Source: a virus (Duplodnaviria > Caudoviricetes). From it: 64,000 bases of DNA. The notes under the pieces are model-generated. The model had not been told where the DNA came from. It made no database searches and was given only the letters and a program-made list of their open reading frames with translations. This document shows, piece after piece, positions 7,060 through 55,327 of this stretch (its first letter is position 1; every line of letters starts with the position of its first letter). The DNA is taken from the IMG/VR virus record IMGVR_UViG_3300047576_000028, positions 1 to 64,000 of that record, one strand, 5' to 3'. The position numbers and the translations under genes were made by a program.

Positions 7060-7500
7060 TTACGCGGCCTGCGCTACGACCGGCGGCTTAGGCGTTGCCG
7101 CCACTTGTGCCTGCAACTGTGCCTCAAACTCCGCTACGGCATTGGAAATAGCTACAGCCCCATTGACGATAGCCGGGATCATGTTCAGCGCCGCTGGCGA
7201 CAACCCCACATTCTTCCCGATAATCGCTATGACCGATTCCAAGTTTGGAGTTTGCGCCTGCAAGATGGCGATTGCGGACTGTTGTTTGGCCTGCCCTTGT
7301 TGCACGCCGGTTATCAAGGTCTCCATCGCATTGGTTGCGCCGAATGCGATAGGAATGATCTCTGCCGCCAGAGGCCCGAACACAGGGATAGTATCGACGA
7401 TAGGAAGCAATGCATTGACTTCCGGCGCGACCGCCTGGATGCCGCCAAGGACGTTCCCGACAACCGATTCGACCTTGAGGAGAACGGATTTGAAACTAAA
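7060..7500 (-). CDS. Amphipathic hypothetical protein; original start apparently lost at the IS remnant
   Basis: Frame stays open upstream of the TTG at 7410 (SFKSVLLKVESVVGNVLGG...). Confidence 0.6.
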   Translation of the reverse strand, partial: FSFKSVLLKVESVVGNVLGGIQAVAPEVNALLPIVDTIPVFGPLAAEIIPIAFGATNAMETLITGVQQGQAKQQSAIAILQAQTPNLESVIAIIGKNVGLSPAALNMIPAIVNGAVAISNAVAEFEAQLQAQVAATPKPPVVAQAA

Positions 7501-7528
7501 AGCCCCCGGCTTTAGCCGTGGAGTTCAC
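7496..7528 (+). mobile_element. IS200/IS605 right-end remnant A
   Basis: CTAAAAGCCCCCGGCTTTAGCCGTGGAGTTCAC; terminal TCAC supplies the TGA of 7525..8022. Confidence 0.8.
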
Positions 7529-8022
7529 TGGCGCACCTTTGATCCAACCTTTACCGTTCGCTTCGCCAGCGATGTCACCTGCGATTTCTCGGCAGCCGTG
7601 GCGACCGGAGTTTGTGGGGTGAAATAGGCGACAATGACTTGCAGCGCCGCATTGAACGCGGAGAGATATTGCTGGGCCTGCGGACTGAACAGTGAGATGT
7701 TCACCTGCCCGATGCACTTGGTAACGGACAACGCCTCAACAGCCCCGCCTGCATTCGCTTGTACAGCAACTTCGATACAGGCTAATGCCGAGTTTAACAA
7801 AGCTCCGCCTGCCTGCACTTCCGATTTGACGTTAGCCGGGATATTGGGGAGCGCTGCCACCAGAGCCTCGCCAGCTTCGACGCCTAGCGTTACATCAGCC
7901 ACGATCTGGCTAGGCGTAGGGGCGGGCGGAGTTGGGCCGGTGGACGTTGAGGCGCAGCCGACCATGAGCATTGCGCCGCACAAGGCGAGCGCGAGAAGTT
8001 GTACGTTGATTCGGTTCTTCAT
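7525..8022 (-). CDS. Lipoprotein (possible spanin or lysis accessory)
   Basis: Signal peptide with an LMVGC lipobox. Confidence 0.7.
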   Translation of the reverse strand: MKNRINVQLLALALCGAMLMVGCASTSTGPTPPAPTPSQIVADVTLGVEAGEALVAALPNIPANVKSEVQAGGALLNSALACIEVAVQANAGGAVEALSVTKCIGQVNISLFSPQAQQYLSAFNAALQVIVAYFTPQTPVATAAEKSQVTSLAKRTVKVGSKVRQ

Positions 8023-8063
8023 GATTCTTAGCTTGACCCTCGTTTTCGGTTCTTCATGATTCT
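8010..8063. repeat. 19-bp direct duplication around a 16-bp IS-derived insert
   Basis: TTCGGTTCTTCATGATTCT at 8010 and 8045; 8026-8045 equals 54631-54650. Confidence 0.9.
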
Positions 8064-8311
8064 CCTTTTTGTTGAGGCTGCACCACTATCCGCGCCGACA
8101 AGCACGATTACCAGACAACTTGCCAGCTTCGGTTTGTATGGATTCCTGCTTCCCGCTCAACCGCTGCCACTGCCCGTCCTAAGCAATCGTAAACGCCGAA
8201 GTAGAATGGGTTTACCACCAAGGCCCTCCAATTCCCATTGACTTCAATCACACCGCCCACCAGCAATCCGTCGATGTAGCACTGACGCACCGAACAGGAC
8301 ATCTTGCGCCA

Positions 8312-8445
8312 GTGACACTCCCCACGGCTAAAGCCAGGGGATTCTCGCTTCAACACCGGACCGCCTCCAGATGCGGAGGTCTTACATCGGCTCCACGAGC
8401 GTTTAGCCTCTCGGCGTGCCCCGCCGCGAGACCTTCATTTCGATT
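8312..8445 (-). ncRNA. Orphan TnpB omega-RNA (reRNA) scaffold / IS605-type right end B
   Basis: Encodes a TnpB-tail-like RNEGLAAGHAERLNARGADVRP and ends GAATCCCCTGGCTTTAGCCGTGGGGAGTGTCAC. Confidence 0.75.
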
Positions 8446-8451
8446 CATAGT

Positions 8452-8844
8452 TTACTTCGATTCCTTTGGCTTCGCGGGCATACAGATCGGCTCACCTGTC
8501 GGGCTGGAAATAGCATCCGCACCGCATACCGCGCGCATCTCCGCCTGCATGGCCATCACGGCTTCTTGAGCCGTCTTCAACGCTTCCTGCGCTTGCTGGT
8601 AGCGCACTTGTCCGGCGAGGGCTTCGGCGTTCACGCGCCAGAATTTCGCTCGGAGTTCTGCGTTAATTTGCGGGGCCGCTGCCGTGACGGAAGGCTCGGG
8701 CTTAGCGGGAGTTTGGGCATGAACGCCATACGGCAATCTGCCAGCCAGAAAGGCACAGAAAAAAACAATTGCGGCAAACGTAATGAATCCGATGTAGTTC
8801 CGGATTCTCTCAAGTCTCTCAATCACTTCGCCTCCGTCAACCAC
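8452..8844 (-). CDS. Membrane-anchored coiled-coil protein
   Basis: TM helix, Ala/Gln coiled coil, two C-terminal Cys. Confidence 0.6.
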   Translation of the reverse strand: MVDGGEVIERLERIRNYIGFITFAAIVFFCAFLAGRLPYGVHAQTPAKPEPSVTAAAPQINAELRAKFWRVNAEALAGQVRYQQAQEALKTAQEAVMAMQAEMRAVCGADAISSPTGEPICMPAKPKESK

Positions 8845-8996
8845 CGAAAAATGCGCACAAAGGTCGCACCGTCCATCGGATGTCCGCGCTCGACCCTACT
8901 GTACGTCGCAGCATTCAGGCCGATTTGCTTCGCGGCTTCGCGAACACCAAGATCGGATACTCGCCGCCATTTTCTAAGCACATCCCCTAACCGCAT
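8823..8996 (-). CDS. XRE/Cro-family HTH regulator
   Basis: LRKWRR..LGVREAAKQIGLNAATYSRVERG. Confidence 0.85.
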   Translation of the reverse strand: MRLGDVLRKWRRVSDLGVREAAKQIGLNAATYSRVERGHPMDGATFVRIFRWLTEAK

Positions 8997-9004
8997 GCGA
9001 TACA

Positions 9005-9034
9005 AAACTAGCACAGACGCGACGGGCTTGTCAA
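9005..9034 (-). promoter_or_regulatory. Promoter TTGACA-N18-TAGTTT for the HTH gene (nearly leaderless)
   Basis: Consensus -35; ATG 8 nt after the -10. Confidence 0.5.
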
Positions 9035-9250: not shown

Positions 9251-9252
9251 GC

Positions 9253-10764
9253 CTACGGGATCGTTGCCTTCCCAGTAACCGCCGTGACTCCCTGAATGTT
9301 CGTCCTCGCCCCTCGGCTGAGCAATGCATAGAGCCGCGAAGATCCGTTGATCGCCAATCCTGCCAAGGCGGCTGCTTGACTGCCGATTGCCGCGTTGTCG
9401 GCGGCTTGATTGCTTGAATAGAAAAATAACGGCGCGGTAAAGAACGGAGAAAACTCGCGAATGCTATTGGCCCCGGCCCATGGGATCATCGTTGACAACC
9501 ACGCGTTAAATAACCCGGTCTGCGTCGGGCTCCAGAGAATATCGTACTGCCCGAGAATATCCTTGCTTTGATATGAGAGCCCGCTAGCCGGACACCAGAA
9601 AGGCGCGTCGGTCTGGCCTATGTCGAGAGGCTTGCCGGTAGTATGGGCGCGCGTGACGAAGCCGTGCGGGCCTGCGTCAGTCCCGCCGAAAGGACCGGTA
9701 ACCGCAGCCATTTCCGCCGCGTAATAGTATTGGCCGGGAAAGGTTGTGTTAGTCAATCCGGGAGTGCAGTTGCCCTGAAAAAGATCAATGACGTAGAAGT
9801 CCAATGCGGCGTAAGTCGCGCTCGCCGGGTTAGTCCAATCGAACCAATAGGCATCGTCGAACTGTTGCGGCCAGCTTAGGCCAGTGCCAGACGCCCCGAT
9901 TGTCAGGCCGTTGTTATTGACGGCCTTGAGGAGCGCGGTCTCGTAGACTAGGAAACCGGAAATATCGGATACGCTGAATACCTGAACGCCAGACATGCCG
10001 GCGGTCGGCTCCTCCAACTCCGTAAACCGGCTGATGGCAGGCCACCGCTTGATTGCCGCCGCGTGCAAGGGGCTGATGCACGCTTGGAACTGAGCGATGG
10101 TGATTACGGGGCTGGCAATTGTGCCCGCTACCCACGGGCTGCTCCCCAAGCCGCACGCTTGCAGTTCATCGGATAACTGTGGGTCGCCCGCGTGAATCGT
10201 CAAACCATGCGCCGTCATGTAGGCGAAAGTCAGGTCGTAATAATGGAGCGCCCAGCAGTGCGGGTTGGCCGTGGAGTTTCCAAGCGGCGTCTCATTGACC
10301 ATCAGGTACGGTGAGTGCGTCTGCCCGCTCGGACAATCCCCTGGAATGTCGTAGGCTCCCGCGCCTGGGGCAAGCGAGTACTCGTAGCTGGATGCTTCCG
10401 CCAACTGCCACAGGTTATAGTTTTGGGTTGTAGCACCCGCTTGGGCCATCAACGTGGCGTATTGCACGCAGTATGGGCCGTTCAGCGCGACGGAGGTACT
10501 CATCTCCGCGCCTTCGCACGGCCAATTCTGCCCGGCCAGCGTTACGGCGTGCTGCCGCGTGCCCGCTATGGACGACGAGATCGACTGGAGGCTCTTGCCG
10601 TTGTTCAGCAGCATCGCGCTGAGCGTAGGGTTGTAGGTATTGGCTCCGACGCCAAGCACCTGGATCGCCGCGCAGCCGGATTGGTTGTACAAAGTACACG
10701 GGGAGACCGCCATCACCGCAAGCGCCGCGATGAGCAGAAGCGCAACCGCCAGTAGTCGTTTCAT
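9253..10764 (-). CDS. Secreted protein, possibly glycoside-hydrolase-like
   Basis: Sec signal peptide; ELEEP and DFYVIDLF segments suggest a TIM barrel. Confidence 0.55.
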   Translation of the reverse strand: MKRLLAVALLLIAALAVMAVSPCTLYNQSGCAAIQVLGVGANTYNPTLSAMLLNNGKSLQSISSSIAGTRQHAVTLAGQNWPCEGAEMSTSVALNGPYCVQYATLMAQAGATTQNYNLWQLAEASSYEYSLAPGAGAYDIPGDCPSGQTHSPYLMVNETPLGNSTANPHCWALHYYDLTFAYMTAHGLTIHAGDPQLSDELQACGLGSSPWVAGTIASPVITIAQFQACISPLHAAAIKRWPAISRFTELEEPTAGMSGVQVFSVSDISGFLVYETALLKAVNNNGLTIGASGTGLSWPQQFDDAYWFDWTNPASATYAALDFYVIDLFQGNCTPGLTNTTFPGQYYYAAEMAAVTGPFGGTDAGPHGFVTRAHTTGKPLDIGQTDAPFWCPASGLSYQSKDILGQYDILWSPTQTGLFNAWLSTMIPWAGANSIREFSPFFTAPLFFYSSNQAADNAAIGSQAAALAGLAINGSSRLYALLSRGARTNIQGVTAVTGKATIP

Positions 10765-10811
10765 AATTTTCTAGTTACAAAGCCGCCGGTTTCAGCCGTG
10801 CGGTTGCTTAC
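10765..10811 (+). mobile_element. IS200/IS605 mini-element C at an ATGA junction
   Basis: TCAT|...AAAGCCGCCGGTTTCAGCCGTGCGGTTGCTTAC; removal restores CCA-TGA/ATG overlap. Confidence 0.7.
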
Positions 10812-13800: not shown

Positions 13801-16594
13801 TGTAGACGCCGCCAGACAGCGTGATCGTGCCACTCCCGTAATGGGGGGCGGATTCAAAAGTATTGAACCGCGGGTTGGAATCCAGCAACCACGGAAGCAC
13901 GCCCAGATTCGCGGTATTATATGAGCCGAATGTGTACGTCGTCGGAGTGGTTGTTAACGTAGCTTGCTGGGTTGCCGTTGCACACGATTGGCCTCCATTC
14001 AGTGACAGGCACGCATTGAGCGTCGGGAAACCGGTAGCAGAAACATATGCCGTAATGGCAAATGACAACTGATCGATCGACCATGCCGTATTGCCGTAAC
14101 CGCTACCGCCATACCCGGCGTTCCACGGACCAGCCGCATTGGTGAGTGGGGGTCTCACCACAAGTACGCTAGATGTGTCGCCAGCCGTCGCGTAGCCACT
14201 AGTACCTACGACATTGCATGGAGTAGTCCACGCGCCGCCAGTATCGCATGGCGTACCAATGTGCGCTTGGTTGAACGCCGAGTCCATCGCGAAGTTAGCC
14301 CACGCGCCCCATTTATTACCACGCGTGCCAACGGCATAATTGACAGTTCCCTGTTGCGGATCGTTGTAAGTCTCTGCGGTTCCGTTGCCAAGCGCTTCGG
14401 GCAAAGGCTGCGTGCCAGGGTTGTTAGGATCAACCAAGTACGGCTCGCCATATGTCTCGCCGAGCGAGATATTGGACGTGGTTCCGACCGTATAAGCAAC
14501 ACTCGATCCGCACGTGACGCTGACGTAGTAGGTGCGTAACGGCTGTAGAGATCGGCTGTAATGACGGTAAGTGTCGGAACCGGCGGCGTTCGCTAGTTGG
14601 GCAGTGCGCGCGCCGAGCACGAAGGTGCGTTGCGTGCCGGATGACAGACTGCCGGGCCGATTGTCGGACGAAGAGCCGGTGAATAGCGCAGCGCTTATGT
14701 CATTGACGTAAGGTGCGGTTGGGACGCCGTTGGTTGCGTTGAGGCTCGCCAATACCGTGCACACGCCACCCGTGGTCGTGTTGTAGTTGATAATCAACTG
14801 CTGTGGGAGCGGCGTCACCGTGACGTTGGTTATGGCCGGGACTTCATAAGCCCCGATGGCCGGGACGGTAGGGCGCAACAGCCCATCGTGGTCGCGGAGC
14901 GTATTGTTGGCTCCGTAGACGCTTGGGGAGCCGAGCGCTATACCGGCATTCTGGGCGCCGCTCGCGGGGCCGATATGGAAGTCGGCAGTAGCGGGCGAGA
15001 CAAACGCCGGGACGGCATTGACCGTGCCGGTGATCTCGGTCAGGTTGAGCACAGGAGCGCCCGTGCCGTACATCAGGTTGTTGGTCCCATAGACCCACGA
15101 ACAAATTTGCAAGTCGGTGCAAGGCTCGTCGGTGGTCGGGTCCCAGACGACCAAGTACGGAACGCCCAATGGGAACAGCGTCGTCGGGACGGCGTCGATA
15201 ATATTGTTGCGGAGGTGCGCGGCGATGACCGGAGCGCCAACCGGCTCGTCTCCGTTGTAGGCGAACCCATTGTTATCGCTGCCGTAGGGAGGCGTTGTGA
15301 ACGTGCCGCACGAATGCATCGTGTTGCCGAAGATCTCGATGGTCCCGCTCCCATTCGGCCCGTTTTCCGTCGATGCCGGGATATTGATGCAGTTCCACCC
15401 GCCGGTGTCTTCCGGGTTGGCGGGCCCCTTGCCGGCGTTATAAACGACGTTGTTGTAGACGGTGACAGGCCCCTGGGATGGATCGACCGTGTCTACGATA
15501 ATACCGTCGCACTGTGTGTCGTGGATCGTGTTGTCATGGATTGAAATGTCGTATTGATCGTGGCCCGTGGGATCGGAAGAGCCGCCCGAGCCGAGCGGGG
15601 AGGAATGCACTTGCACGCCGCGGCAGCCATGCACATTCTCGACCAGGTTCCAGCCCATGTCGATATCGTTGCTGTCGGTGGAGAAGTAGACTCCCTGGAA
15701 CAGCGCCGAGGCACCCGCGGTCCCGGCGTTGTAGACGTGATTGCCGTAGAAAAAGATGTTACTGGCTTGGGAAGTCTCAAAGCACGATCCGCCCCCGGCC
15801 GACCCACTAGTATAGGGGCATGTGATATCGCTGCCGATGAAGCGATATCCGCCAACACTTGGGCTGTCACCAACTTCCACTGGAGAAATACCCCGGAAAC
15901 TGATGCCCGCCAGCACCCAGTTACCCTGACAGTCACTCGCTCTCAGCCCCCAAGATGGATCGCTTGCTCCCGTTGGACTGCCGATGGTTACCGTGGCCCC
16001 CGGATAGGCCACCAACGCCCGCGGATTACCGGTGGCTGAACACCAGTTTCCCTGGCCGCCGCCCGATAGCAAAAACGCGGCGTCCCAGCCTGTGCCATCG
16101 TCGGTGGATTGCGTCACGCCGTTCAGTGCATACGTGATATCGCCGTTCGCCATAGAGTTGCGGGCCTTGAGGAGGGTCGCCCATGGAGCCGCATAGGACC
16201 CCGCCGCGCCATCGCTGCCGGTAGTCGCGACGAAATAGATATTGCCGGACGCAACCGCGAATGGCAAGGTATTGGAGGCTAAGCCGTTGACTGTGACGAC
16301 GATATTGCCGGTCGCGGCGCTTGCTCCAAGCTGGCACGTAATCTGCTGATACCAGAGGTGGGATACGCCCCAGATGACGCAGTTGGTCATTGCGCCGCCT
16401 CCGACCGTGATGGTGGAGGAGCCTTGGGAAGCGCCAAAGAAATTGCCGTAGACCGAGACGTAGGCCCCGTTTCCGCCCTGGCCTCCGGTGTTCGGGCCGC
16501 TGATGAGGTCGCTAAAGAATAGGACTGGGCTTTGAGCGCAGAGCGTTGTAGAAATACAGGCTAATAAAAGCGCGAAGAGAATGATATTTTTCAT
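10808..16594 (-). CDS. 1928-aa secreted protein: IPT/TIG domain, right-handed beta-helix (depolymerase-like) and a large beta-rich region
   Basis: Signal peptide; YVSVYGNFFG..GNIVVTVNGLASN; repeated N-x-I/V-x-N rungs. Confidence 0.7.
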   Translation of the reverse strand: MKNIILFALLLACISTTLCAQSPVLFFSDLISGPNTGGQGGNGAYVSVYGNFFGASQGSSTITVGGGAMTNCVIWGVSHLWYQQITCQLGASAATGNIVVTVNGLASNTLPFAVASGNIYFVATTGSDGAAGSYAAPWATLLKARNSMANGDITYALNGVTQSTDDGTGWDAAFLLSGGGQGNWCSATGNPRALVAYPGATVTIGSPTGASDPSWGLRASDCQGNWVLAGISFRGISPVEVGDSPSVGGYRFIGSDITCPYTSGSAGGGSCFETSQASNIFFYGNHVYNAGTAGASALFQGVYFSTDSNDIDMGWNLVENVHGCRGVQVHSSPLGSGGSSDPTGHDQYDISIHDNTIHDTQCDGIIVDTVDPSQGPVTVYNNVVYNAGKGPANPEDTGGWNCINIPASTENGPNGSGTIEIFGNTMHSCGTFTTPPYGSDNNGFAYNGDEPVGAPVIAAHLRNNIIDAVPTTLFPLGVPYLVVWDPTTDEPCTDLQICSWVYGTNNLMYGTGAPVLNLTEITGTVNAVPAFVSPATADFHIGPASGAQNAGIALGSPSVYGANNTLRDHDGLLRPTVPAIGAYEVPAITNVTVTPLPQQLIINYNTTTGGVCTVLASLNATNGVPTAPYVNDISAALFTGSSSDNRPGSLSSGTQRTFVLGARTAQLANAAGSDTYRHYSRSLQPLRTYYVSVTCGSSVAYTVGTTSNISLGETYGEPYLVDPNNPGTQPLPEALGNGTAETYNDPQQGTVNYAVGTRGNKWGAWANFAMDSAFNQAHIGTPCDTGGAWTTPCNVVGTSGYATAGDTSSVLVVRPPLTNAAGPWNAGYGGSGYGNTAWSIDQLSFAITAYVSATGFPTLNACLSLNGGQSCATATQQATLTTTPTTYTFGSYNTANLGVLPWLLDSNPRFNTFESAPHYGSGTITLSGGVYTLTNQSNPSCQAGSDCFSLYWINGGNGSMRISSSGTACIDPPASTTSTEYQIASFTNGNAVTLSGTPPTGTVNWCENNFGVMLWRSGPPTDSSTIYLQHAEMSVLESGFPYYPDNGTGGACMNTLTSNGLSGASAGMGYWCGYGGVMWVDPGNPALSAYFAYTGTSSSGPNPWTGFSYPTGNSADIDQTQAQFTFDNLANDSSSGSPLVIQGVFNPSNATAPFTAGVISQPTIAQGGNSQIQNATQNSPTTYSVTYNNGLAFTNLTPQTTMAESVFDQVAALDGTFQASYYNANPIGGGGANCFNGGVSLGIYAFGCFVYGGDSPGIIVAFDPGDYNPAHAGLSSGPRIVGEITTYNTPQGAVATGQGALVGFSLHALSQTGETGWFQIDCNPYSPITTTTLTGSGIPSTGPAKCNTFDATLSSVADCIAIQMNSYTYASVTGYEPYYTAGSILKGTPGELRTTQIGDTACIVGGSGSCSFTGGNELLTLRIKNYTSPGIFTTPGNFVFQRATYGTETAIAAGTATLDWQSYQSSLPIGAETANTGITVFWNPLTGCGGAPDPLGNCFLQDTNNTQSHGYWSNGSEAVNTNCPAWQEAIWGWPSCYQTVLGYIPGILSFPFANITPYQAAGVNFAAVNPPFSATYGHPWGFDGGSHPNPPGANSSPHEITQGFDNLPIQGGQNEQAFTLVSGQLYSMTPANVTDPDDIQGTGSYVPINRKLMATAVSCGSHPLVDVSGPSSSINGTAGASYEYCFARNVNECQSGSTVGEVFVNCPGVTAPSCGGSGIHGSNPLGVGNDICMGNVALNGDSIMQFGLGATDHQGAYSRSLSLSEQWFHMVYGFENNQSTPGNEALLYRREFPEYQRADMWELTLPPYPAFDSVNRAAYEPIAIKVSPGPTSIATRAAVDFGYMEYAQGGTYNCTTRNDGCQSVTAAIPTGNTPFVFVSESATGLACTSGCTITVPAIPARAMYYRIRYENSSSVTIALGPWQLTAIP

Positions 16595-16675
16595 AAGGGC
16601 CTTTCGCGCGGGAAACCCGCTGCCTTCAGCATGACTCAGCTAAAAGCCGCCGCCTTTAGGCGCGCGGTAGTTTAC
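16595..16675 (+). mobile_element. IS200/IS605 mini-element D at an ATGA junction
   Basis: TCAT|...GAAACCCGCTGCCTTCAGC...AAGCCGCCGCCTTTAGGCGCGCGGTAGTTTAC; removal restores CAA-TGA/ATG overlap. Confidence 0.75.
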
Positions 16676-22146: not shown

Positions 22147-22392
22147 ATGGCTAAAGATCTCATGGTTTTACTGGCGACATCCGAACTGGCACGGATTTTG
22201 CTTGCTTTCGCCCTCTCGGCGGGGTGCGCGTTCGGGCACTTCCTCGGCCAGTACTCATACAGCAAGACCCTCCCGCTGCCGCGCACCCGCAAGCAACGGC
22301 TAATGCGAATGTGTTCCGTCGCTGGGCCTACGGCTTTGCTGCTGGCCGTAGGATTCGCATTTACTTGGTTTCTTATGAGCATCCCGGAGTAA
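22147..22392 (+). CDS. Two-TM membrane moron
   Basis: Own promoter; stop codon supplied by mini-element E. Confidence 0.55.
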   Translation: MAKDLMVLLATSELARILLAFALSAGCAFGHFLGQYSYSKTLPLPRTRKQRLMRMCSVAGPTALLLAVGFAFTWFLMSIPE

Positions 22393-22523
22393 GCAACCCC
22401 ACGGCTAAAGCCGGGGGCTTTTAGATTCCACATGCGAAAGATCAAAACACTTCGCTGCGGTTCGAGTCGGCTTACTCCGGCCATGCCGGACGACGCCAGC
22501 CTGACTGCTCAGATCCAGAAGTG
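22389..22523 (-). mobile_element. IS200/IS605 mini-element E (omega-RNA-like core)
   Basis: About 105 bp near-identical to 52494-52599; ends GGGGTTGCTTAC; preceded by TCAC. Confidence 0.85.
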
Positions 22524-41015: not shown

Positions 41016-41093
41016 TAAGTTTTCTCCGAGAAGCCCCTGATATTTTGCATGTGGAATCTAAAAGCCCCTGGCTTTAGCCGTGGAGTTGCTTAC
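41016..41093 (+). mobile_element. IS200/IS605 mini-element F at a GTGA junction (internally deleted copy of G)
   Basis: TCAC|TAAGTTTTCTCCGAGAAGCCCCTGA..GGAGTTGCTTAC; removal restores AAG-TGA/GTG overlap. Confidence 0.88.
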
Positions 41094-42690: not shown

Positions 42691-42698
42691 CCATCAGC

Positions 42699-42998
42699 CT
42701 ACGGTCGCTTATCAGGCGGATACTTCGCGACTCTTTGAGTGACCACGGGCCTCTCGCTCGATGGAATGGAGACCTCGGCTAGAGGTTGAATAGCCTTTTC
42801 TTCAATCGGCGTCGTTGGAGGTGGCGCAATTACCACGGCGACCCCAGCCATCACCAATTGGGCGGCGCGGGCCGCTGGAAATCCAGCCTTCTCGCCTGCA
42901 TTATAAATATCACAGTGACGGAGAAATTCCACCGTTACCACCGGTGAGCCAACTGCCTTCTTGCCTGGCCACGCGAAGGCCATATCTTCACCTGTCAT
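42699..42998 (-). CDS. Small head-module protein
   Basis: VEFL..YNAGEKAGF..AAQLV..GVAV. Confidence 0.6.
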   Translation of the reverse strand: MTGEDMAFAWPGKKAVGSPVVTVEFLRHCDIYNAGEKAGFPAARAAQLVMAGVAVVIAPPPTTPIEEKAIQPLAEVSIPSSERPVVTQRVAKYPPDKRP

Positions 42999-44509: not shown

Positions 44510-44542
44510 GGGCCGAGCGTTACTTAACCCGGCCCTGAACCA

Positions 44543-45100
44543 TTAGTACACTATGGGATTGGGAGCGAAGTGAGGGCTTGGTGCGGGTCCCGTTGCCGGG
44601 ACGACCGCCTGTGCCGCGAGGGGCGCGGAGCTTACTCCGGCAGGAGGCAGTTCCGCCTGACCTCCGAATATCATGACGACCGGAAACACGTTGGCAGTAT
44701 CGGTTCCGGCTCCAGACATCGTTGGCAGGTATGCCACCCGTAGAAATTGCTGGGCGCTGTCAATAGCCACGTCTAGTTGCGCAGAGCCGTAAGCTGCTGC
44801 CGCCGTACCTGTCGCAACCAATATAGAAGCGGTATTGCCGACGTTGACCCACGAAGAGGCGTTACTATAATTCGAGGTCGTCTGGAGAACCGCCGCGATA
44901 GTCAGCGTATTACCGTTGACCTGATTTTGCGCGAAAGGGAAGACCACGGCGACGGATAGAGGCCCCCCCATGGCGTTGAGGTCAATGGAGGTCCCATTGA
45001 CAAGTGCGTTATTGCCCGACCCGCCTGCGGTCACGTTCGTCGATACTCCAGCGACCGCCGTGGCGATATAGGCGCCAATGTTAGTTCTTGTGCTGGTCAT
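44543..45100 (-). CDS. Putative capsid decoration protein
   Basis: Beta-rich; directly after the major capsid gene. Confidence 0.6.
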   Translation of the reverse strand: MTSTRTNIGAYIATAVAGVSTNVTAGGSGNNALVNGTSIDLNAMGGPLSVAVVFPFAQNQVNGNTLTIAAVLQTTSNYSNASSWVNVGNTASILVATGTAAAAYGSAQLDVAIDSAQQFLRVAYLPTMSGAGTDTANVFPVVMIFGGQAELPPAGVSSAPLAAQAVVPATGPAPSPHFAPNPIVY

Positions 45101-45137
45101 GTTATCTTTTTTCTCCTTGTTTGTTTTTGGACGCTGG

Positions 45138-46514: not shown

Positions 46515-46670
46515 TCGGTCCTATTCCTTTTGGATTTAGATTCCGCCGTTTGTAGCAGGCGGGCCGCATGGTGACGTTCTAGGGAAAAGCCCCAGATTTG
46601 GAGGCAGGGTCCATCCGACCCTGTTTGATGCAGGAACTTGTATTATACTACGCCCAAACGCCGAAATCAT

Positions 46671-46753
46671 ATCAGTTCGCGAGAGAAACCGCTGGCTTTA
46701 GCCATGCGGAGGGCCCACCGTAAACGGAGGGATTGCTCGGCGTTATCGTTCAA
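46671..46753 (+). mobile_element. IS200/IS605 left-end-like remnant I
   Basis: TCAT|..TTCGCGAGAGAAACCGCTGGCTTTAGCCATGCGGAGG resembles the left end of D; right boundary (TTCAA) uncertain. Confidence 0.55.
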
Positions 46754-46763
46754 GTTCTACCCG

Positions 46764-48434: not shown

Positions 48435-48469
48435 CTTGTTCTCCTTTTAAGCCCTAACTCCGCACGCCG

Positions 48470-48937
48470 TTAGCGCGTTATCTTTGCAGAAATGTACTCC
48501 GGCTCTCCGATAGACGTAAGCAGCCGAATCTGCTGTTCCAGCCATCCAATGCGCTCCTCAGAATCCTTGAGCAGATGTTCGAAAAGATTGCGCGTCGTAT
48601 CATCCCGCGCATTCACCGCTACCTGAACAGCATCCTCGGAAGGGTCCTTGAACGCCATCTCAGCCGCTAACTCCGCAGTAAAGATGTCCCCGATAGTATT
48701 GCGCTGAACAATAGGGCCGATGACGGTGTCTATGGTGCCTCCAAGCAATAGAAGCCGCTTCTTGAACTCCGCCATCCATTCGTGGGTGTCATCGCCGAAC
48801 TTGCCAATGTGCTTTGCCACTCTCTTGATCCCCATGAACTGAAGGACCGATCTGTCGGCGCGATACTGCACGTGCAGTTGCGTGGCTGACTTCAGCGCTA
48901 CTTGAAGTGTTGCTATTACCGATGGGTTGCCCTGCAT
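48470..48937 (-). CDS. Bacterioferritin-like protein with a degenerate ferroxidase centre
   Basis: MQGNPSVI.., RLLLLGG, DDTTRNLFEHLLKDSEERIGWLEQQIRLL..IG..Y aligns with Bfr over its length. Confidence 0.8.
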   Translation of the reverse strand: MQGNPSVIATLQVALKSATQLHVQYRADRSVLQFMGIKRVAKHIGKFGDDTHEWMAEFKKRLLLLGGTIDTVIGPIVQRNTIGDIFTAELAAEMAFKDPSEDAVQVAVNARDDTTRNLFEHLLKDSEERIGWLEQQIRLLTSIGEPEYISAKITR

Positions 48938-48993
48938 TTGACGGCTCCTTGTGGGGTTATTGCCCAGCGGTTGCGGGGCAGTTGTTTGCCGGT

Positions 48994-50493
48994 TCAGTTA
49001 GTACTCATTGGACCTTTGCCATGTCCGGTATCATACGGCGGAGTTTTCTTTACCTTAACTGGGTGGCTTCCGTTTTGCGCTACAACAACCGGATCGTCGG
49101 ACACGGGAGCGTCAACCGTCTTTGGCGTTGGCTTCTTGCCATTGTTGGTGGGGGCTGCATTTGGGGGAGTTTTGCCATCCTCTCCCTCGTCTTCGCCCTG
49201 CGGCGGCATGACCTTCCCGCCCATGCCGTTCTCAAAGATGTACTTAACGGTCGCCATCGCTCCGTTCATATACTTACCGTCCATCTCTGGGTCTGGGTCT
49301 GGATTGAATCCGTCTATACTTCGCGCTTCATTTGGACTGATCTCACCGCACGCTATCAAGGTTTGGTTGCGCCGTGACATACTCAACACATCTCCCCGCA
49401 GTAGGGCGGATAGATCATGACGGCAGGTGATGGCGTCATTATTGCCGAGCACCGTTATGTTACATTTCTGCTCAATACGCTCCATTGCGGGAGCGATGGT
49501 GTGCTTGGCGAAGTAAATATCGCCCTGCTCTGCCGAAGCGTAGGTAGCGGTACCAGGGGCCGCCATCATGAATGCGGGCATGTCGAACACACGGCACAAC
49601 TCAAGGACTTGAAAATTCCGTCCCTCGATAAACTGGGCATCTTCGGGCGACATTTTCATCTCGTGGAGTTTCATGCCGCCGTACATCAATGCGACCTTCC
49701 CGGCTTCGTCGAGCGCTCCAGTGTTTTCGCGCCATGTCGCCATGAACTTGTCGCGGTCGTCGATCATGCCGGGTATTTCGATCCAATAAGGCGGCTTTCC
49801 ACCGTGCTTCAGGAAGCGCCCGAAGTACTCTTCCTGGCCTAGCCCCAGGCCGACAGCCTGCCGCATGAGCGTTATCGGAGAGAAGCCCATTAAGCCATCG
49901 AAGCCGAGATAGGGGATATGGAGGATGTCCTGCCATGGGTAAATTCCAGGCCGCACCGGCACGCTGTACGGATTGTGCGGAAAGTATCTGTAGACCAATT
50001 CTCCACCAATAGCAGTTCGCAATACTTGTACATACCCCGGCTCAAGCGGCCAGATATTCCGTAACCTGCCTGCCCCATCCCACTCCAGATAGTTGTAGGA
50101 GTTCCCCCAGAGCAACAAACTTGCCACCATTTGTTCGCGCCATTGGAAGCTGGACATCTCGCTATTTGGCTCTTCCTTCAGCATTCGATAGCGGTAGTCG
50201 TTTATGGCTGGGGTTTTGGTATCGCTGTTCTTGCCGGTGTTGATAAAGGTAATCAAGGGGCACGAGGCTACCGCTTTGGCGATCTTGGACACACAGCCAT
50301 ACACCGTAGCCATCGTCATGGCTGTGGCGGGACTGACAGGACGCCCGGTATACGTGGACGCTCCTGTACTTAGCAGGTTGTAGATCGCGCTGCCAATCTT
50401 GGCGTTGCCGAAGTCGCGGCGTTCGAACACAGGTGGTCCGTTAAGGATGTCGTGTCCGTTACGCTGTGTTAGCGTGCCCAACGTTTCAATCAT
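48994..50493 (-). CDS. Portal protein, HK97 family
   Basis: TVYGCVSKIA, LLLWGNSY, ILHIP..GFDGLMGFSPI, DAQFIE, LLRGD, SPNEAR. Confidence 0.95.
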   Translation of the reverse strand: MIETLGTLTQRNGHDILNGPPVFERRDFGNAKIGSAIYNLLSTGASTYTGRPVSPATAMTMATVYGCVSKIAKAVASCPLITFINTGKNSDTKTPAINDYRYRMLKEEPNSEMSSFQWREQMVASLLLWGNSYNYLEWDGAGRLRNIWPLEPGYVQVLRTAIGGELVYRYFPHNPYSVPVRPGIYPWQDILHIPYLGFDGLMGFSPITLMRQAVGLGLGQEEYFGRFLKHGGKPPYWIEIPGMIDDRDKFMATWRENTGALDEAGKVALMYGGMKLHEMKMSPEDAQFIEGRNFQVLELCRVFDMPAFMMAAPGTATYASAEQGDIYFAKHTIAPAMERIEQKCNITVLGNNDAITCRHDLSALLRGDVLSMSRRNQTLIACGEISPNEARSIDGFNPDPDPEMDGKYMNGAMATVKYIFENGMGGKVMPPQGEDEGEDGKTPPNAAPTNNGKKPTPKTVDAPVSDDPVVVAQNGSHPVKVKKTPPYDTGHGKGPMSTN

Positions 50494-50504
50494 GTTTCCC
50501 TAAT

Positions 50505-51200
50505 CTAGAGCGGTACCGACATCAGTCCCCATTTTGGCGTGGGGATAGAAGCCTGAAGCCGGCGCAGCGCGATGATAGTCGCGACCACACCATCGATCCG
50601 TTTGCTGCTTTTCTGGCGGTTAGGTTTTACCGGCTTGATATTCGCCGCCGATTCGTCTTGGGCTATTGCTGTACAGTCCACATTCCACCGCAGGACTTGA
50701 TGCCCACTGTGAACCAACTTGCCGGACAGCACCAAAGACTCAAAATACTTGCTTGGGGCGCTCAGTGAAATGTAGCCCTGGCCCACGTCAACTACTTCGA
50801 TATCAACGTTAGCCAAATCCGATACGGTGTCGCGCGCGCCGTGGCGATCAAAACCGATTTGCTTGATGTCGAATATCTTATCCAGTTCCTTGATGCGCTC
50901 ACGGCAGTATCCCCAATCGGTAACCGGCCCAGGGGTCAGTTCTACAAGTCCTTGCTTGGCCCATAGGTCATACCGTACATTGTCTTTCTTGGACCGTTCC
51001 AGCAAGCCGTCTTCCGGTATCCAAAACCATACATGCACGTAGACCGATTGTTTGATGAGCCAGACTAACGAGAACGCAGTGAGATCGGAGACGGCGGCTA
51101 AATCGAGGCCCCCGTAACATGGATATTTAACCAGTTGCTCGCAGAACTTCTGCCCGTCCGGATCTCTAGTGATTAGCGGAGTTGCTGCTGGTGCGGCCAT
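50505..51200 (-). CDS. terL: Terminase large subunit, nuclease half
   Basis: CYGGLDLA..DLTA, IGFDRHGA, VGQGY, KRIDGVVA. Confidence 0.9.
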   Translation of the reverse strand: MAAPAATPLITRDPDGQKFCEQLVKYPCYGGLDLAAVSDLTAFSLVWLIKQSVYVHVWFWIPEDGLLERSKKDNVRYDLWAKQGLVELTPGPVTDWGYCRERIKELDKIFDIKQIGFDRHGARDTVSDLANVDIEVVDVGQGYISLSAPSKYFESLVLSGKLVHSGHQVLRWNVDCTAIAQDESAANIKPVKPNRQKSSKRIDGVVATIIALRRLQASIPTPKWGLMSVPL

Positions 51201-51256
51201 TAACTTGTTGTTTGCGCAGAGCCTTCACTTTGGCCTTCCTGCGCTTTGTGCGTCCC

Positions 51257-52237
51257 TTACCCATTTGACGCCGCGATGGGTTGCCCGTCCCACTTACAGG
51301 CATCCCAGTCTATCATGGGTATCCAACAGGAAGCACTGTTAACCCACTGCGACAAATGTAGTTGTTGAAAGTCGCGTTGCAGGCGCGGGGTCCTAACCGC
51401 CCGTTCAAACTCTTCCTCCAGGATCTCCATATTGACAGTAATCCCAAGGGCCGGATTCGCCAACGGCCACAGGGACTTGTCTGTCCAGTCTGCTTCCCTG
51501 GGGACCTCGTAGATCATCGGAAGGTAAGTGGGGTCTTCAAACACTGCAGGCACGAACTTCCCATCTTTATCCCTTGTCGGCGTGATGTTCTTAGCGTAAA
51601 GATATTCCTGCCCGCACATCGTCTCTTCGTCCACACCAGCCGTGGTTATGTATACCTCAAGCGGTTGCCTACGTGCGCCGCGTCCGGTAGTTAGTGCCTT
51701 GCGAAGGTCTTCTTCCCGAGCACCCCACACATGGAATTCGTCGTAGAGGATAGTGCTTGGATTCGAGCCGTGCTTGGCCTTTCCCTCAGACGACAAAGCC
51801 TTAAACATACCCTTGTTCTTGCGATGTCGAATCTCCTTCCGATATGGGATCACTTGTAGTAGATCCGGCAATTCCTCGTGCGCCATCACCATCTCGGAAG
51901 CCGCTTCATACAGCTTGCTACTTTGCTCTGAGGTTTTGGCGGCTGCGTATATCTCCTGATAAGGTTCCGGGTCCATGACTAGTAGGTCTAAGCCAAGTGC
52001 TGCGCATGACTGCGTTTTGGAATTTTTCCTGCCCACAGATAAGAAAGCCGTTCTGTATAGTCGCGTGCCATCCGCGCGCTTCCACCCTAACAGGTTTCCG
52101 ATCAACTTCTTTTGAAATGGCATCAGCCGAAACGGCTCCGGCTTGCCGCTCTGCGTGGACTTAGTAAGGGTTAGCGACTCGATAAAGGCGAAGTCCAGCA
52201 GCACGCTGGTGTCGAAGTATATGCCGTCGATGTCCAT
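51257..52237 (-). CDS. terL: Terminase large subunit, ATPase half
   Basis: LMPFQK, Walker A GRKNSKT, Walker B ILYDEFH, ITTAG, WPLANPALG. Confidence 0.92.
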   Translation of the reverse strand: MDIDGIYFDTSVLLDFAFIESLTLTKSTQSGKPEPFRLMPFQKKLIGNLLGWKRADGTRLYRTAFLSVGRKNSKTQSCAALGLDLLVMDPEPYQEIYAAAKTSEQSSKLYEAASEMVMAHEELPDLLQVIPYRKEIRHRKNKGMFKALSSEGKAKHGSNPSTILYDEFHVWGAREEDLRKALTTGRGARRQPLEVYITTAGVDEETMCGQEYLYAKNITPTRDKDGKFVPAVFEDPTYLPMIYEVPREADWTDKSLWPLANPALGITVNMEILEEEFERAVRTPRLQRDFQQLHLSQWVNSASCWIPMIDWDACKWDGQPIAASNG

Positions 52238-52278
52238 TAGGCTACCTGGTACTCGTTGGTAGCGCTTAGGCTACCCTT

Positions 52279-52491
52279 TCAGCGCCAGCAACTAAAGCTA
52301 CGCGCTTGATCTAGAGATATCAAGCCGCTACGCAAGGCGCAACGGATTTCTTCGTTTATTTCATCCACGAGATGTGGCGGTACCCAATAGCCTCCATCAG
52401 GTCTGGCCGTTGTGGAAACTGGCTGGTCTACGGCTTTTATTGCTGGGGCGGCCAATAGATACGCGCAGAAAGAACGCCGGGTGTTTTTCAT
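52279..52491 (-). CDS. Hypothetical protein
   Basis: Small ORF upstream of terL. Confidence 0.4.
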   Translation of the reverse strand: MKNTRRSFCAYLLAAPAIKAVDQPVSTTARPDGGYWVPPHLVDEINEEIRCALRSGLISLDQARSFSCWR

Positions 52492-52493
52492 GG

Positions 52494-52658
52494 GTAAGCA
52501 ACTCCACGGCTAAAGCCGGGGGCTTTTAGATTCCACATGCAAAATCTCAAAACATTTCGCTGCGGTTCGAGTCGGCTTACTCCGGCCATGCCGGACGACC
52601 GCGCCGATTCTCCCGTCCTCCCCATGACTGGAGTCAGGGGCTTCTCGGAGAAAACTTG
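52494..52658 (-). mobile_element. IS200/IS605 mini-element G, most complete (165 bp: left end, structured core, right end)
   Basis: TCAC|CAAGTTTTCTCCGAGAAGCCCCTGACTCCAGTCATGGGG...AAGCCCCCGGCTTTAGCCGTGGAGTTGCTTAC. Confidence 0.88.
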
Positions 52659-52757
52659 GTGATTTACTGGGGAATTAAGCATTAGATGCGCTGGGGATCA
52701 GTGCTGCGGGCCTTGTGCCTTCAGAATGTGTACGGTAGTTATGTATATAAGTCCCAT

Positions 52758-53195
52758 TTACTGATTCCACTGGAATACGAGACTAGCGACCGCGCCCGAC
52801 GCACTGGCGTTAAGAAACACGCCGCCCACAAATGCGATGCATGTACTCGATATTGGGTAAGTCACCGGCGCGGCGCTGGCACCCAATACGCCGCTGTAGA
52901 CCGTGTGCCCGTTTCCATCGGTCAGCGTGATGGTCTGACCGGTGCCAATCAGCAGGCCGCCGCACACGTAGATGGTGCTGTCTGGGACATATGCCGGGGG
53001 AGCCGCCGTCGTAGCCTGTGCTACTGTCTGGCTGCATCCCGATCCTGGGCCGATCAAACAAGGCGCTGTTCCGGCCGTCGAAACGGCTTGCAGTCGCATC
53101 TCGGCAGAGTGGTTGAAGGTATTGGCGCGGGTAGTGATGGTTTGCGCGGGAAGGCTCAGCGCGAACGCTAGGCCGGTCAAAATTCGCAGTCTCAT
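52758..53195 (-). CDS. Secreted beta-rich hypothetical protein
   Basis: Signal peptide MRLRILTGLAFALSLPA-Q; ATGA overlap. Confidence 0.6.
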   Translation of the reverse strand: MRLRILTGLAFALSLPAQTITTRANTFNHSAEMRLQAVSTAGTAPCLIGPGSGCSQTVAQATTAAPPAYVPDSTIYVCGGLLIGTGQTITLTDGNGHTVYSGVLGASAAPVTYPISSTCIAFVGGVFLNASASGAVASLVFQWNQ

Positions 53196-53965
53196 GTTTG
53201 AAATACTCCGGCGAACGAACGACGATTTTGGAGGGGAGCAAGCCGAATGCGTGCGCGTGGTGGGCGCGCCATGAGAAGCGCCACGTTTCGCTCGGCCCCT
53301 GAACTCATGTCGGAACAGGCAGATTGGTTGTAGTACATGATGCATTCAGAAATATGCGCCGCCCGCTGCGTACCGCTCATTTCGAGCATGGGCCACATGA
53401 GCGCGCGGTCTTCCGCTACGCGGAAATACTGACCGTAATCGTCGCGTAAATCCATGTCCTCAACGAGACTGTAGAGCCACCGCTTCCATGTCCGTACCGC
53501 CGTGCCTAGCCAGCGATATTGGCGGAAATGCGTCAGGCCGTCAGGGTAAGCGGGCCAACCGCCCTCACCCCATGGGGCACCAGGTTTTGAATACCAACTT
53601 CCATAGGTCATCCAGCAGGCGCGCGATGCATAGGTATCCGCGATTATTTGAAGTGCGTCCGGGCGGCAAAACCAATCGTCGCCGTCAAGCGACACAATAA
53701 CGTCCTCCGGGTCGTCTCCGCAACGCTTAATCGCCGCGATCTGGTTGTACAGCGAATACTTCCTATGCTGGTTAGCCGTTACATGCACACGCGATGCAAG
53801 GGCTGGCGCGGAGGCGGCAATAATGGCCTCTTCGTATGCGCCGTCTCCGCATGGATCTATCGTAACCCAAGCGTCCCAATCGCGATATGTCTGCGTCGCA
53901 AGAGATTCAAGGCACAGTCCGATGACATGCGCGCACGGGCCGCCGTTGACGATAATCCTAAGCAT
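53192..53965 (-). CDS. Glycosyltransferase family 2
   Basis: CLESLATQTY, VSLDGDDW, WMTYGS, AED..LM.PMLEM. Confidence 0.85.
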   Translation of the reverse strand: MLRIIVNGGPCAHVIGLCLESLATQTYRDWDAWVTIDPCGDGAYEEAIIAASAPALASRVHVTANQHRKYSLYNQIAAIKRCGDDPEDVIVSLDGDDWFCRPDALQIIADTYASRACWMTYGSWYSKPGAPWGEGGWPAYPDGLTHFRQYRWLGTAVRTWKRWLYSLVEDMDLRDDYGQYFRVAEDRALMWPMLEMSGTQRAAHISECIMYYNQSACSDMSSGAERNVALLMARPPRARIRLAPLQNRRSFAGVFQT

Positions 53966-53974
53966 TGTGTCTCG

Positions 53975-54130
53975 TTATCTGAAAAGCCCACAGAGGTAGC
54001 AGATCAACACGATGATTAGAATAGTCCCGAGTCCCACGCCGACACCACCTTGCGGTCCCCACTGCCCATTTCCATACCAGCCGCCAAAGCCGCCGAACAA
54101 AATAATCAACAAAAGGATTAACAGGATCAT
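53975..54130 (-). CDS. DUF3309-like small membrane protein (51 aa)
   Basis: MILLILLLIILFGGFGGWYG..WG..GG.G.GLGTILIIVLI. Confidence 0.7.
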   Translation of the reverse strand: MILLILLLIILFGGFGGWYGNGQWGPQGGVGVGLGTILIIVLICYLCGLFR

Positions 54131-54191
54131 ATCAGTTCCTTAACGGCCCGCGAAACAGCCCGTAGCCGCTTCTGGATGGACAAGACGGCCG

Positions 54192-54344
54192 TCACAAACC
54201 AACAACAATGCCGATCAGGACCATCACGAATATGGTCCACGCGCCGCTGCGCCGTGGATATGGCTGGGAAGGCGTATACCAGTGCCAAAGGCCAAAGAAC
54301 AGCCCGGCAACGTAGAACAGCCAGAACCACATTGGCAGCGTCAT
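54192..54344 (-). CDS. Small membrane protein (50 aa)
   Basis: AAAGGAG RBS; MTLPMWFWLFYV... Confidence 0.55.
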   Translation of the reverse strand: MTLPMWFWLFYVAGLFFGLWHWYTPSQPYPRRSGAWTIFVMVLIGIVVGL

Positions 54345-54437
54345 GTTTGTCTCCTTTCTAATTTTGTCTCTCCTGTTTATCCGAATCGCATAAACGCGGC
54401 GACTTGTTCTGCCGCCGCGTTAGTGACGTACGGACCA

Positions 54438-54608
54438 CTACTTCGTAGTGAACACTTGGTGGTCGGTGACCGCCACCACTGTACCATCGTTCGCTACTGG
54501 TTTGCCGTTCGATTTCAGAGCCGCCGGATGCCCCGCTAGGGTATACAACACCGCTCCGGTTGTCTGGCCCTCAACTGTCTTTGCAACGCCGTCTATTGTG
54601 ATCGTCAT
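54438..54608 (-). CDS. Stand-alone multi-ubiquitin-like domain (56 aa)
   Basis: MTITIDGVAKTVEGQTTGAVLYTLAG...VANDGTVVAVTDHQVFTTK. Confidence 0.55.
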   Translation of the reverse strand: MTITIDGVAKTVEGQTTGAVLYTLAGHPAALKSNGKPVANDGTVVAVTDHQVFTTK

Positions 54609-54621
54609 GGATTCAACCTTT

Positions 54622-54727
54622 GGTAGTGGGTCTTAGCTTGACCCTCGTTTATCCTTAAGGGAGTTGAATGTCGTTTGCTCATGGCTGTCTGTTCAACAGT
54701 TTCCAAAGGCCCCTACCGGGCCTGCCC
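54622..54727 (+). repeat. About 106-bp direct repeat (IS1-like end plus ncRNA 5' module); partner at 60886-60990
   Basis: Identical apart from a 1-nt indel; begins GGTAGTGGGTC. Confidence 0.92.
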
Positions 54728-55305
54728 GTCAATTCCAATTATAGCGCGCCCATTTCAGGGGAGTTTTCTTGAAGTGACCGGATTCACGGCAGACGGAGCA
54801 CTTGCGGGTTGACCATGGGCGCAGTAATGGCGTATTCGTCCCCAGCCCTTAACATCGCACTATGGTAGCGCATCAATTCGTAGCCGCGTTCCAAAGATCC
54901 TGTTGAAATTCGCCAGTTCCATGACTTCAGGCGGTTCAGTTCCGGCTCTTTGCCCGCCGTCAGCTTTGCGTTGAACTGAACCCCAAACAGGACCGCCCTG
55001 GATTCACTTCGCGCGGATGTGCCCGGCGTACTTGTTGCGTGAGCAGACCCAGGCGCGTGGACTATATCGTGCTGGCGCAAAATCCGTCTTTCGCGTCATG
55101 CGAACGCCGCAGTCTTCGCACTTATCTCGCTTTCAGCTAGTCGTCGAATTCGCTCATCGCGTCCTCCGTGTCGATTGCGCGCGATCTGCATCTCAAGAGA
55201 CGTGCGTTGTTCCGCGAGGTCGGATGGCGTTCCTGCCGTTCCGCTCCAGTTCCCTCCATGCGATGTCGCAACCACGAATTCTTCTCTCGTCATTGGGATA
55301 TTATA

Positions 55306-55327
55306 CTTTAGCCGTGGAGTTGCTTAC
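55306..55327 (+). mobile_element. IS200/IS605 right-end remnant H
   Basis: CTTTAGCCGTGGAGTTGCTTAC, 12 bp after the TCAT that is the start of ORF 55096..55293. Confidence 0.75.

Follow-up and report, generated by a model that had tools for sequence, protein, structure and literature searches.

IS200/IS605-type ends, fragments and miniature derivatives at gene junctions of a phage genome from peat and permafrost

Copies of the elements in the phage genome

The first 64,000 nucleotides (nt) of a viral contig in IMG/VR (Caudoviricetes; record IMGVR_UViG_3300047576_000028), hereafter the window, contain a set of hairpin-bearing repeats, which are ends, fragments and internally deleted mini-elements (minis) of at least two related elements of the IS200/IS605 family of insertion sequences (IS). 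The source contig comprises 97,001 bp with 56% G+C, is approximately 85% complete according to CheckV, and encodes a major head protein and a tape-measure protein; parts of this phage genome recur in over 20 metagenomes of peat and permafrost. The target-site counts given below were based on crude gene calls (152 genes, 91% coding).

An initial annotation of the window, made from its letters alone, had placed hairpin ends at nine positions (7496, 8312, 10765, 16595, 22389, 41016, 46671, 52494 and 55306); all nine are present, with corrected extents. Type 1 elements, which insert after TCAC and terminate in TTAC, are represented in full by copy G (52494..52658, minus strand; TCAC at 52662-52659), a 165-nt mini composed of a 59-nt left end and a 106-nt right end. 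Copy F (41016..41093, plus strand) is a 78-nt type 1 mini following TCAC (41012-41015), in which left-end nt 1-25 are fused to the final 53 nt of the right end, making it a further deletion derivative. Copy E (22389..22494, minus strand) consists of the final 106 nt of a type 1 right end, including the last 30 tnpB codons, and has no left end, while H (55306..55327, plus strand) is a 22-nt type 1 right-end stub comprising the loop, the 3' arm and the tail TTGCTTAC. Copy A (7492..7528, plus strand) is a right-end fragment with guide AAAG, hairpin CCCCCGGCTTTAGCCGTGGAG and tail TTCAC.

Type 2 elements insert after TCAT. Copy D (16595..16675, plus strand; TCAT at 16591-16594) is an 81-nt internally deleted type 2 mini, both ends of which match the tnpB3-bearing element described below; its right boundary was moved from 16672 to 16675. 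A type 2 left end stands alone in X (46671..46713, plus strand; TCAT at 46667-46670), located in the protease-capsid intergenic region, and a type 2 left-end stub at 54127..54138 (plus strand) retains TCAT and 8 nt (ATCAGTTC). Copy C (10765..10811, plus strand; TCAT at 10761-10764) is a 47-nt relic with the right-end hairpin only, combining a type 1-like tail with a type 2-like stem. A third IS type is represented by copy B (8312..~8390, minus strand), a right end with guide GAAT and tail TGTCAC that resembles ends of the form ...GAGAAT-hairpin-GGAGTGTCAA that are widespread in other viral contigs.

Six further copies outside the window, at 68471-68540, 74926-75090, 81348-81386, 82478-82583, 94123-94228 and 96042-96206, were retrieved by blastn of G against the 97,001-bp genome. 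Two of them, J (74926-75090) and N (96042-96206), are 165-nt minis like G. The three are 97.6-99.4% alike and share one internal deletion junction, which cannot arise by chance; the presence of these minis with identical junctions at three separate TCAC sites implies that transposition followed the deletion event. Both ends, no gene and several dispersed copies, the features of palindrome-associated transposable elements (PATEs), are found in G, J, N, F (78 nt) and D (81 nt), whereas A, B, C, E, H and X are fragments with one end each, strictly not PATEs. The left junction is intact in eight copies and, as the initial annotation had proposed for surviving left junctions, follows TCAC (F, G, J, N) or TCAT (C, D, X and the tnpB3-bearing element) in all eight. 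The flanks carry no repeat, and target duplication is absent.

Two arrangements around these copies were also recorded. A and B are right ends of different IS types lying inverted about 800 bp apart (window 7485-7535 and 8305-8358) and bracketing a 165-aa lipoprotein-like gene. They share the flank TGGCGCA(C/A), which is unlikely by chance and for which a duplicated gene 3' end and guide-directed copying are candidate causes; a tblastn search detected no TnpB remnants beside either copy. A 79-nt perfect inverted repeat (52678-52756 and 59355-59433, 6.6 kb apart) lies directly beside G.

Structure of the ends and target pairing

On the transposon strand, a type 1 element follows TCAC with CAAGTTTTCTCCGAGAAG and a left hairpin, CCCCTGACTCCAGTCA(T)GGGG, and closes with the guide AAAG, a right hairpin, CCCCCGGCTTTAGCCG(T)GGAG, and the tail TTGCTTAC, the right end reading ...AAAG-CCCCCGGCTTTAGCCGTGGGG-TTGCTTAC as a whole. 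Both hairpins are on the same strand and carry a bulged T, and terminal inverted repeats are absent. Read in the direction of the genes, a full copy starts with G-TAA-GCAAC and the hairpin CUCC(A)CGGC-UAAA-GCCGGGGG, and its far end presents the hairpin CCCC(A)UGACU-GG-AGUCAGGGG, then CUUCUCGGAGAAAACUUG, and finally GTGA. The tnpB3-bearing type 2 element begins after TCAT with CGGTTCCTTTCGCGCGGGAAA-CCGCTGGCTTTAGCCATGCGG and ends in ...CCGCCGCCTTTAGGCGCGCGG-TAGTTTAC.

In IS608, the hairpin foot is preceded at a distance of 19 nt by the left cleavage site TTAC, and each hairpin has on its 5' side a tetranucleotide (AAAG, GAAT) that performs the recognition, with pairs T-4:A+17 and T-3:A+16 (PMC3201880, PMC5934647). 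The phage elements follow the same layout, with the left cleavage site 18 nt 5' of the hairpin foot and the right terminus 8 nt 3' of the foot, compared with 10 nt in IS608. The four bases preceding each hairpin match the cleaved tetranucleotide as this pairing predicts: GAAG at type 1 left ends goes with TCAC, GAAA at type 2 left ends with TCAT, AAAG at right ends with TTAC, and GAAT in a metagenomic relative with TCAA. The fourth position covaries across these pairs. The TTAC/AAAG pair of the IS608 left end is the right-end pair of the phage elements.

A scan of IMG/VR with a 16-nt hairpin core returned more than 116 viral contigs, and a rule-based finder applied to 98 of these loci yielded 131 distinct hairpins. 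The predicted tetranucleotide was present at the expected distance for 99 of the 131 (43 left ends and 56 right ends); at control distances, the corresponding numbers were 2 and 3. These pairing statistics are strong evidence for IS200/IS605 ends that would work like those of IS608. Assignment to the family is further consistent with paired subterminal imperfect palindromes, insertion at a tetranucleotide without duplication, and TnpB beside the right end; a Y1 (HUH) TnpA, the remaining hallmark, was not found in the 97-kb genome. Repetitive extragenic palindromic (REP) elements mobilised by REP-associated tyrosine transposases (RAYT) were considered and rejected, there being no Y1 or RAYT gene and the hairpins being joined to tnpB and arranged in left/right pairs. 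IS608 and ISDra2 share with the phage elements the single-strand hairpin pairs, the insertion 3' of a tetranucleotide without duplication and the pairing rule, but the phage elements differ in lacking tnpA, in targeting TCAC/TCAT instead of TTAC or TTGAT, and in their phage setting.

Insertions at gene junctions

The complement of TCAY is RTGA and that of TTAC is GTAA, so an insertion can be neutral for the genes on the opposite strand. The proposal that on the coding strand the target reads ATGA or GTGA and the element end G-TAA or G-TGA is supported by the copies. Copy C lies between the stop of a 1928-aa gene and the ATG of a 503-aa gene, and its removal in silico gives CCA-TGA with a synonymous change (CCG to CCA). 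Removal of D gives CAA-TGA between the 1694-aa and 1928-aa genes, again with a synonymous change (CAG to CAA), and removal of F gives AAG-TGA between 70-aa and 135-aa genes of the structural module, with AAG unchanged. Deletion of C, D and F thus restores perfect ATGA/GTGA overlaps and leaves both proteins unaltered in each case, as the initial annotation had stated.

The other copies behave less uniformly. Two had been credited with supplying a stop codon: A does so for an open reading frame (ORF) at 7525-8022 (minus strand), to which it gives TGA (the complement of G-TGA), whereas the TAA given by E belongs to ORF 22147-22392, a putative gene only. N supplies a stop and nothing more, and J sits only on the GTG of an 89-codon ORF. 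G has no co-directional junction, and its right end abuts the ATG of the oppositely running ORF 52279-52491. The broader statement that the family lands on ATGA/GTGA junctions holds for C, D and F, just three of the eight copies with a left junction, but not for G, X, A, B, E or H.

The genome contains 564 TCAC sites, with 48 in non-coding DNA, five at start codons and none at overlaps, and 594 TCAT sites, with 62, 35 and 13 in the same categories. An occupancy of three overlaps by eight copies is enriched relative to all sites (p = 9e-5) and modestly so relative to tolerable sites (p = 0.019). Because enrichment over tolerable sites is modest, the four-base target combined with purifying selection is sufficient for the phage data. 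TnpB-only and IscB elements with GT/GA, GT/AA and N/ATGA targets (slash, insertion point), Chloroflexi included, were described in 2016 (PMC4810608), and the junction siting was largely foreseeable from this known target.

Parent elements and TnpB

A Pfam search of the genome identified three tnpB genes, all beyond the window and each with an OrfB_IS605 and a Cas12f1-like TNB domain: TnpB1 (81431-82567, 378 aa), TnpB2 (94142-94918, a 5'-truncated identical copy of TnpB1) and TnpB3 (70523-71656, 35% identical to TnpB1). The initial description of the family as TnpA/TnpB-less is correct insofar as the window has no tnpB and no Y1 gene was found in the genome, but it overlooks these three genes. 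They directly adjoin two type 1 right ends (L and M) and a type 2 end, and their 3' ends overlap the right end, TnpB1 and TnpB2 terminating within L and M. The 165-nt minis correspond to the first 59 nt of the type 1 element plus its final 106 nt, including the last 30-31 tnpB codons. With no TnpA gene, the elements are non-autonomous and need TnpA in trans. Lack of an own TnpA is usual for TnpB-only elements and PATEs. A target-adjacent motif (TAM) of the form TCAY had been predicted for the autonomous parent; this agrees with the tnpB-bearing type 2 parent, while the left ends of the type 1 parents are truncated and TCAC rests on the four minis.

The RuvC motifs of TnpB1 are intact (GVDLG, RMERL and HADIQAAMNIA, providing D, E and D). 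RMERL and HADIQAAMNIA align with the ME and AD..NIA motifs of 8hr5, the best-matching solved homologue, and the other structure matches include solved TnpB and Cas12f chains. For the 20 nt beyond each right end, no second match of at least 11 nt exists in the genome, and at occupied sites the guide match is preceded by TTAC, not by a TAM. Taken together, the retained motifs, the missing second guide match and the TTAC beside the guide match fit a role in homing or retention and do not fit a TldR-like one, and TnpB1 looks like a homing nuclease judging from its sequence. Homing and retention are the standard role of TnpB (Meers et al., bioRxiv 10.1101/2023.03.14.532601). The marks of TldR proteins are loss of RuvC residues and a guide matching a host or phage promoter; TnpB1 retains the residues, and the guides lack a second match in the phage genome. 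The final 106 nt, a putative guide-RNA scaffold, is kept in the 165-nt minis and folds well (z = -2.9). An extended -10 promoter lies upstream of tnpB1, and the minis do not have this box.

Empty sites and mobility

At site C, a relative of the 503-aa gene with 43% identity (contig L013) forms a CC-ATGA overlap with the gene upstream, which lends weak support to the predicted empty site; a closer relative (56% identity, L011) has TAA-G-ATG. Searches for empty alleles elsewhere, considered in the Discussion, leave their existence undecided either way; look-ups of the genes beside G and J matched nothing on record. Strains differ at position 54130, the start codon of a 51-codon ORF (53975-54130), where contigs of two other peat/permafrost runs have a longer type 2 left end in place of the 8-nt stub of the reference.

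In two independent assemblies (L156 and L157), the upstream flank of N is joined through a mini to the downstream flank of J (genome 96207+ and 74925-). This may be a 21-kb deletion variant formed by recombination between minis, or the 165-nt repeat may have given rise to a chimeric assembly.

Relatives in other genomes

The same right end was found beside TnpB, beside an oppositely oriented IscB-like gene, or without a gene, in a Chloroflexi metagenome-assembled genome (MAG), another MAG and 15 metagenome contigs. A search of 401 genomes belonging to the same class as the Chloroflexi MAG recovered the 24-nt right end from that already known MAG alone. Contigs L017, L023 and L026 carry this same right end (…GGCTTTAGCCGTGGRGTTGCTTAC) about 300 nt upstream of a gene in the opposite orientation, the product of which starts with MAVFVVDK..KPLMPC..RARLLL, an IscB-like PLMP/RRXRR N-terminus; L006 and L015 look like IscB-type minis retaining only the guide RNA. 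As the right end is common to elements with TnpB, with IscB and with no gene, one transposase family seems to serve all three.

Seven of eight independent left ends from bacteria and metagenomes abut the start codon of an opposite-strand ORF of at least 98 codons. Four such ORFs were confirmed by Pfam (TsaD, VanZ, DUF433 and an arylmalonate-decarboxylase-like protein, Amdase), at least TsaD and the Amdase-like ORF starting at the usual N-terminus of their family. In viral contigs, 10 of 19 left ends at TCAC/TCAT open an ORF of at least 60 codons, versus 6 of 22 for other target classes; when all TCAH left ends are pooled, the count is 21 of 35 versus the same 6 of 22 (p = 0.028). The right end is mostly not used as a stop in the bacterial relatives.

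More telling than these ORF counts is a feature new to this analysis, an outward ribosome-binding motif on the left ends of TCAH-targeting elements. On the gene strand, a Shine-Dalgarno (SD) core (GGAG, GAGG or AGGA) is located 4-10 nt before the start codon of the target in 12 of 28 distinct TCAH-class left ends, whereas none of the 20 that target TTAT, TGAC or TTAC has it (p = 5e-4). The motif occurs in differing sequence contexts; in the type 1 left end, it is GGAG placed 8 nt before GTG.

Other features of the contig

GenBank phages share approximately 100 nt of the capsid gene and nothing more. A search of IMG/VR for close phage relatives returned one short locus, ending before the F site. 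No relative of the 1928-aa protein was found, and a metagenome scan with the 340-aa protein as query found no close phage relative. The SMART template-switch oligonucleotide AAGCAGTGGTATCAACGCAGAGTAC is present at genome positions 1-25 and 96977-97001 and is library adaptor, not phage DNA.

A tRNA at window 813-897, adjoining a 328-aa ORF, looks unusual and long-armed: Rfam reports it as tRNA-Sec-like (47.4 bits, just above threshold), and ARAGORN as tRNA-Ile with anticodon UAU. Direct repeats of 70 nt at 99% identity (15056-15125 and 43580-43649) lie inside otherwise unrelated large genes, and another pair of 55 nt at 100% occupies 2426-2480 and 46749-46803. A leader-like sequence of about 110 nt, including TCTTAGCTTGACCCTCGTTT three times and bearing no relation to the IS ends, is repeated upstream of unrelated small genes (54613-54730, 60877-60993, 2249-2315 and 8026-8045). 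Beyond the window, two 392-codon ORFs placed 3.1 kb apart (genome 88132-89310 and 91260-92438) have a matching pattern of neighbouring ORFs, which looks like a tandem duplication.

Discussion

With a probability of roughly 85%, the repeats are best read as copies, fragments and PATE-like minis of at least two related TnpB-only IS200/IS605 elements resident in a 97-kb phage of peat and permafrost. A Y1 TnpA acting in trans, encoded by the host or in a portion of the phage genome that was not sampled, would move the elements in single-stranded form. The target TCAC or TCAT would be selected by the tetranucleotide on the 5' side of the left hairpin (GAAG or GAAA), and the right cleavage site TTAC by AAAG 5' of the right hairpin. 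Read from the other strand, the target is GTGA or ATGA, a start codon followed by A, the right end is G-TAA, and the left end carries GGAG 8 nt before the start. With this target and these ends, an element entering a start codon or an ATGA/GTGA overlap would leave the two proteins unchanged and, probably, both of them translated. Purifying selection, acting on a genome with a coding density of about 91%, would retain only such insertions and intergenic ones, and TnpB1 probably uses guide RNAs from the right ends to cut emptied sites, thereby retaining the elements.

Several observations weigh against this account. The Y1 transposase TnpA (PF01797) had no match in the 97-kb genome, which is about 85% complete, so transposition within this phage is something we infer. 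Simple scans revealed no promoter within the minis, and the elements matched no Rfam family, which keeps a guide RNA from the minis putative. No record skipping F or G was present in contigs of four peat/permafrost runs over 40000-56000, and exact-protein look-ups encountered F in two other assemblies and N in five; these contigs and assemblies yielded no empty allele of F, G or N. Overlaps account for only three of the eight copies with a left junction, and the left ends share ancestry, so that the SD counts are not fully independent.

Whether the siting at starts and overlaps reflects survival or choice was also weighed. The transposase or a guide system might actively prefer start codons and overlaps beyond the four-nucleotide target, and the location would then result from targeting. 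The seven of eight bacterial and metagenomic relatives whose position coincides with the start of an ORF of 98 codons or more, and the pooled TCAH excess (21/35 versus 6/22, p = 0.028), speak for such a preference, as does a crude count in which start codons make up about one-fifth of the tolerable TCAH sites of the phage. We nevertheless consider it unlikely: the left flanks show no conserved base outside the tetranucleotide, IS608-type recognition reads four bases (PMC3201880), and the three of eight phage copies yield just p = 0.019 against tolerable sites. Moreover, G, X and the tnpB3-bearing element are without a convincing start codon, and about 27-36% of control sites likewise open long ORFs in GC-rich DNA.

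Two other explanations give the repeats a function for the phage. The minis could be domesticated guide-RNA genes that tune or repress the late genes they face, together with TnpB or a TldR-like protein. The initial annotation had raised this idea, and its geometric part stands, every right end aiming a would-be guide antisense at the 3' end of the upstream gene, with TnpB available in trans. Late-gene tuning of the TldR kind is nonetheless very improbable in view of the intact RuvC D, E and D motifs aligned with solved TnpB and Cas12f structures, the TTAC in place of a TAM beside the guide match at occupied sites, the lack of a second guide match of at least 11 nt in the genome, and the minis' lack of the extended -10 promoter of their parent. 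A reading of the repeats as regulatory cassettes belonging to the phage itself (promoters, terminators or sites of RNase processing), and not mobile DNA, was considered and rejected as the least credible. Copies do lie between genes, the elements fold better than shuffled sequences (z = -2.9 and -1.7), and in gene orientation UUUU follows the right-end hairpin; this U run, however, is the mere complement of the guide AAAG, identical ends flank the tnpB genes and recur in unrelated bacterial and viral contigs beside TnpB or IscB, the guide covaries with the cleavage site, and the simple scans gave no terminator or promoter inside the minis.

The preferred reading, as remnants and minis of TnpB-only elements, has close parallels. 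The IS605B/ISC elements (Kapitonov, Makarova and Koonin 2016, PMC4810608) have the same targets on the other strand, the same GT..A ambiguity between target and terminus, and one end shared by TnpB-only and IscB elements, as in L017, L023 and L026, with Chloroflexi among the hosts; that study covers cellular genomes, not phages, and makes no mention of start codons, stop/start overlaps or ribosome-binding motifs. PATEs are gene-less IS200/IS605 derivatives that often carry a guide RNA for use in trans (Meers et al., bioRxiv 10.1101/2023.03.14.532601). Like them, the phage minis combine a left and a right end without a gene, keep the guide-RNA region proximal to the right end and presumably depend on the TnpA and TnpB of others, but they are very small (165 and 78 nt), number at least 14 in 97 kb when fragments are counted with the copies, and lie in several cases on gene junctions. 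Literature searches returned no report linking the insertion target to start codons or overlaps, which is not proof of absence.

We tentatively suggest, as a prospect somewhat short of even, that lineages with TCAH targets, the complement of ATG, GTG or TTG followed by A, have evolved ends invisible to translation. The stop in the right end (G-TAA or G-TGA) and the suitably spaced outward SD motif of the left end would uncouple coupled genes and allow the elements to settle at starts and overlaps in operons, the dense ones of phages among them. Such translation-transparent ends would be the sequence-level counterpart of IStron splicing. IStrons are IS605-type elements fused to a group I intron and are spliced out of RNA. 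Like them, the phage elements can occupy a gene or operon and leave the product of the host unharmed; unlike them, they have no intron and avoid damage through their insertion site and the stop and SD motifs at their ends.

For the phage, the findings mean a considerable load, a single environmental genome bearing three tnpB genes plus no fewer than 14 derived ends or minis, together with a means of tolerating it, the target and both ends being built so that junctions survive insertion. The repeated minis are substrates for recombination and may reshape the phage genome. If the outward SD motif is a true adaptation, annotators should expect elements exactly between stop and start codons, where gene callers see an odd spacer of 50-170 nt, and these ends would offer a natural design for scarless insertion of cargo in operons.

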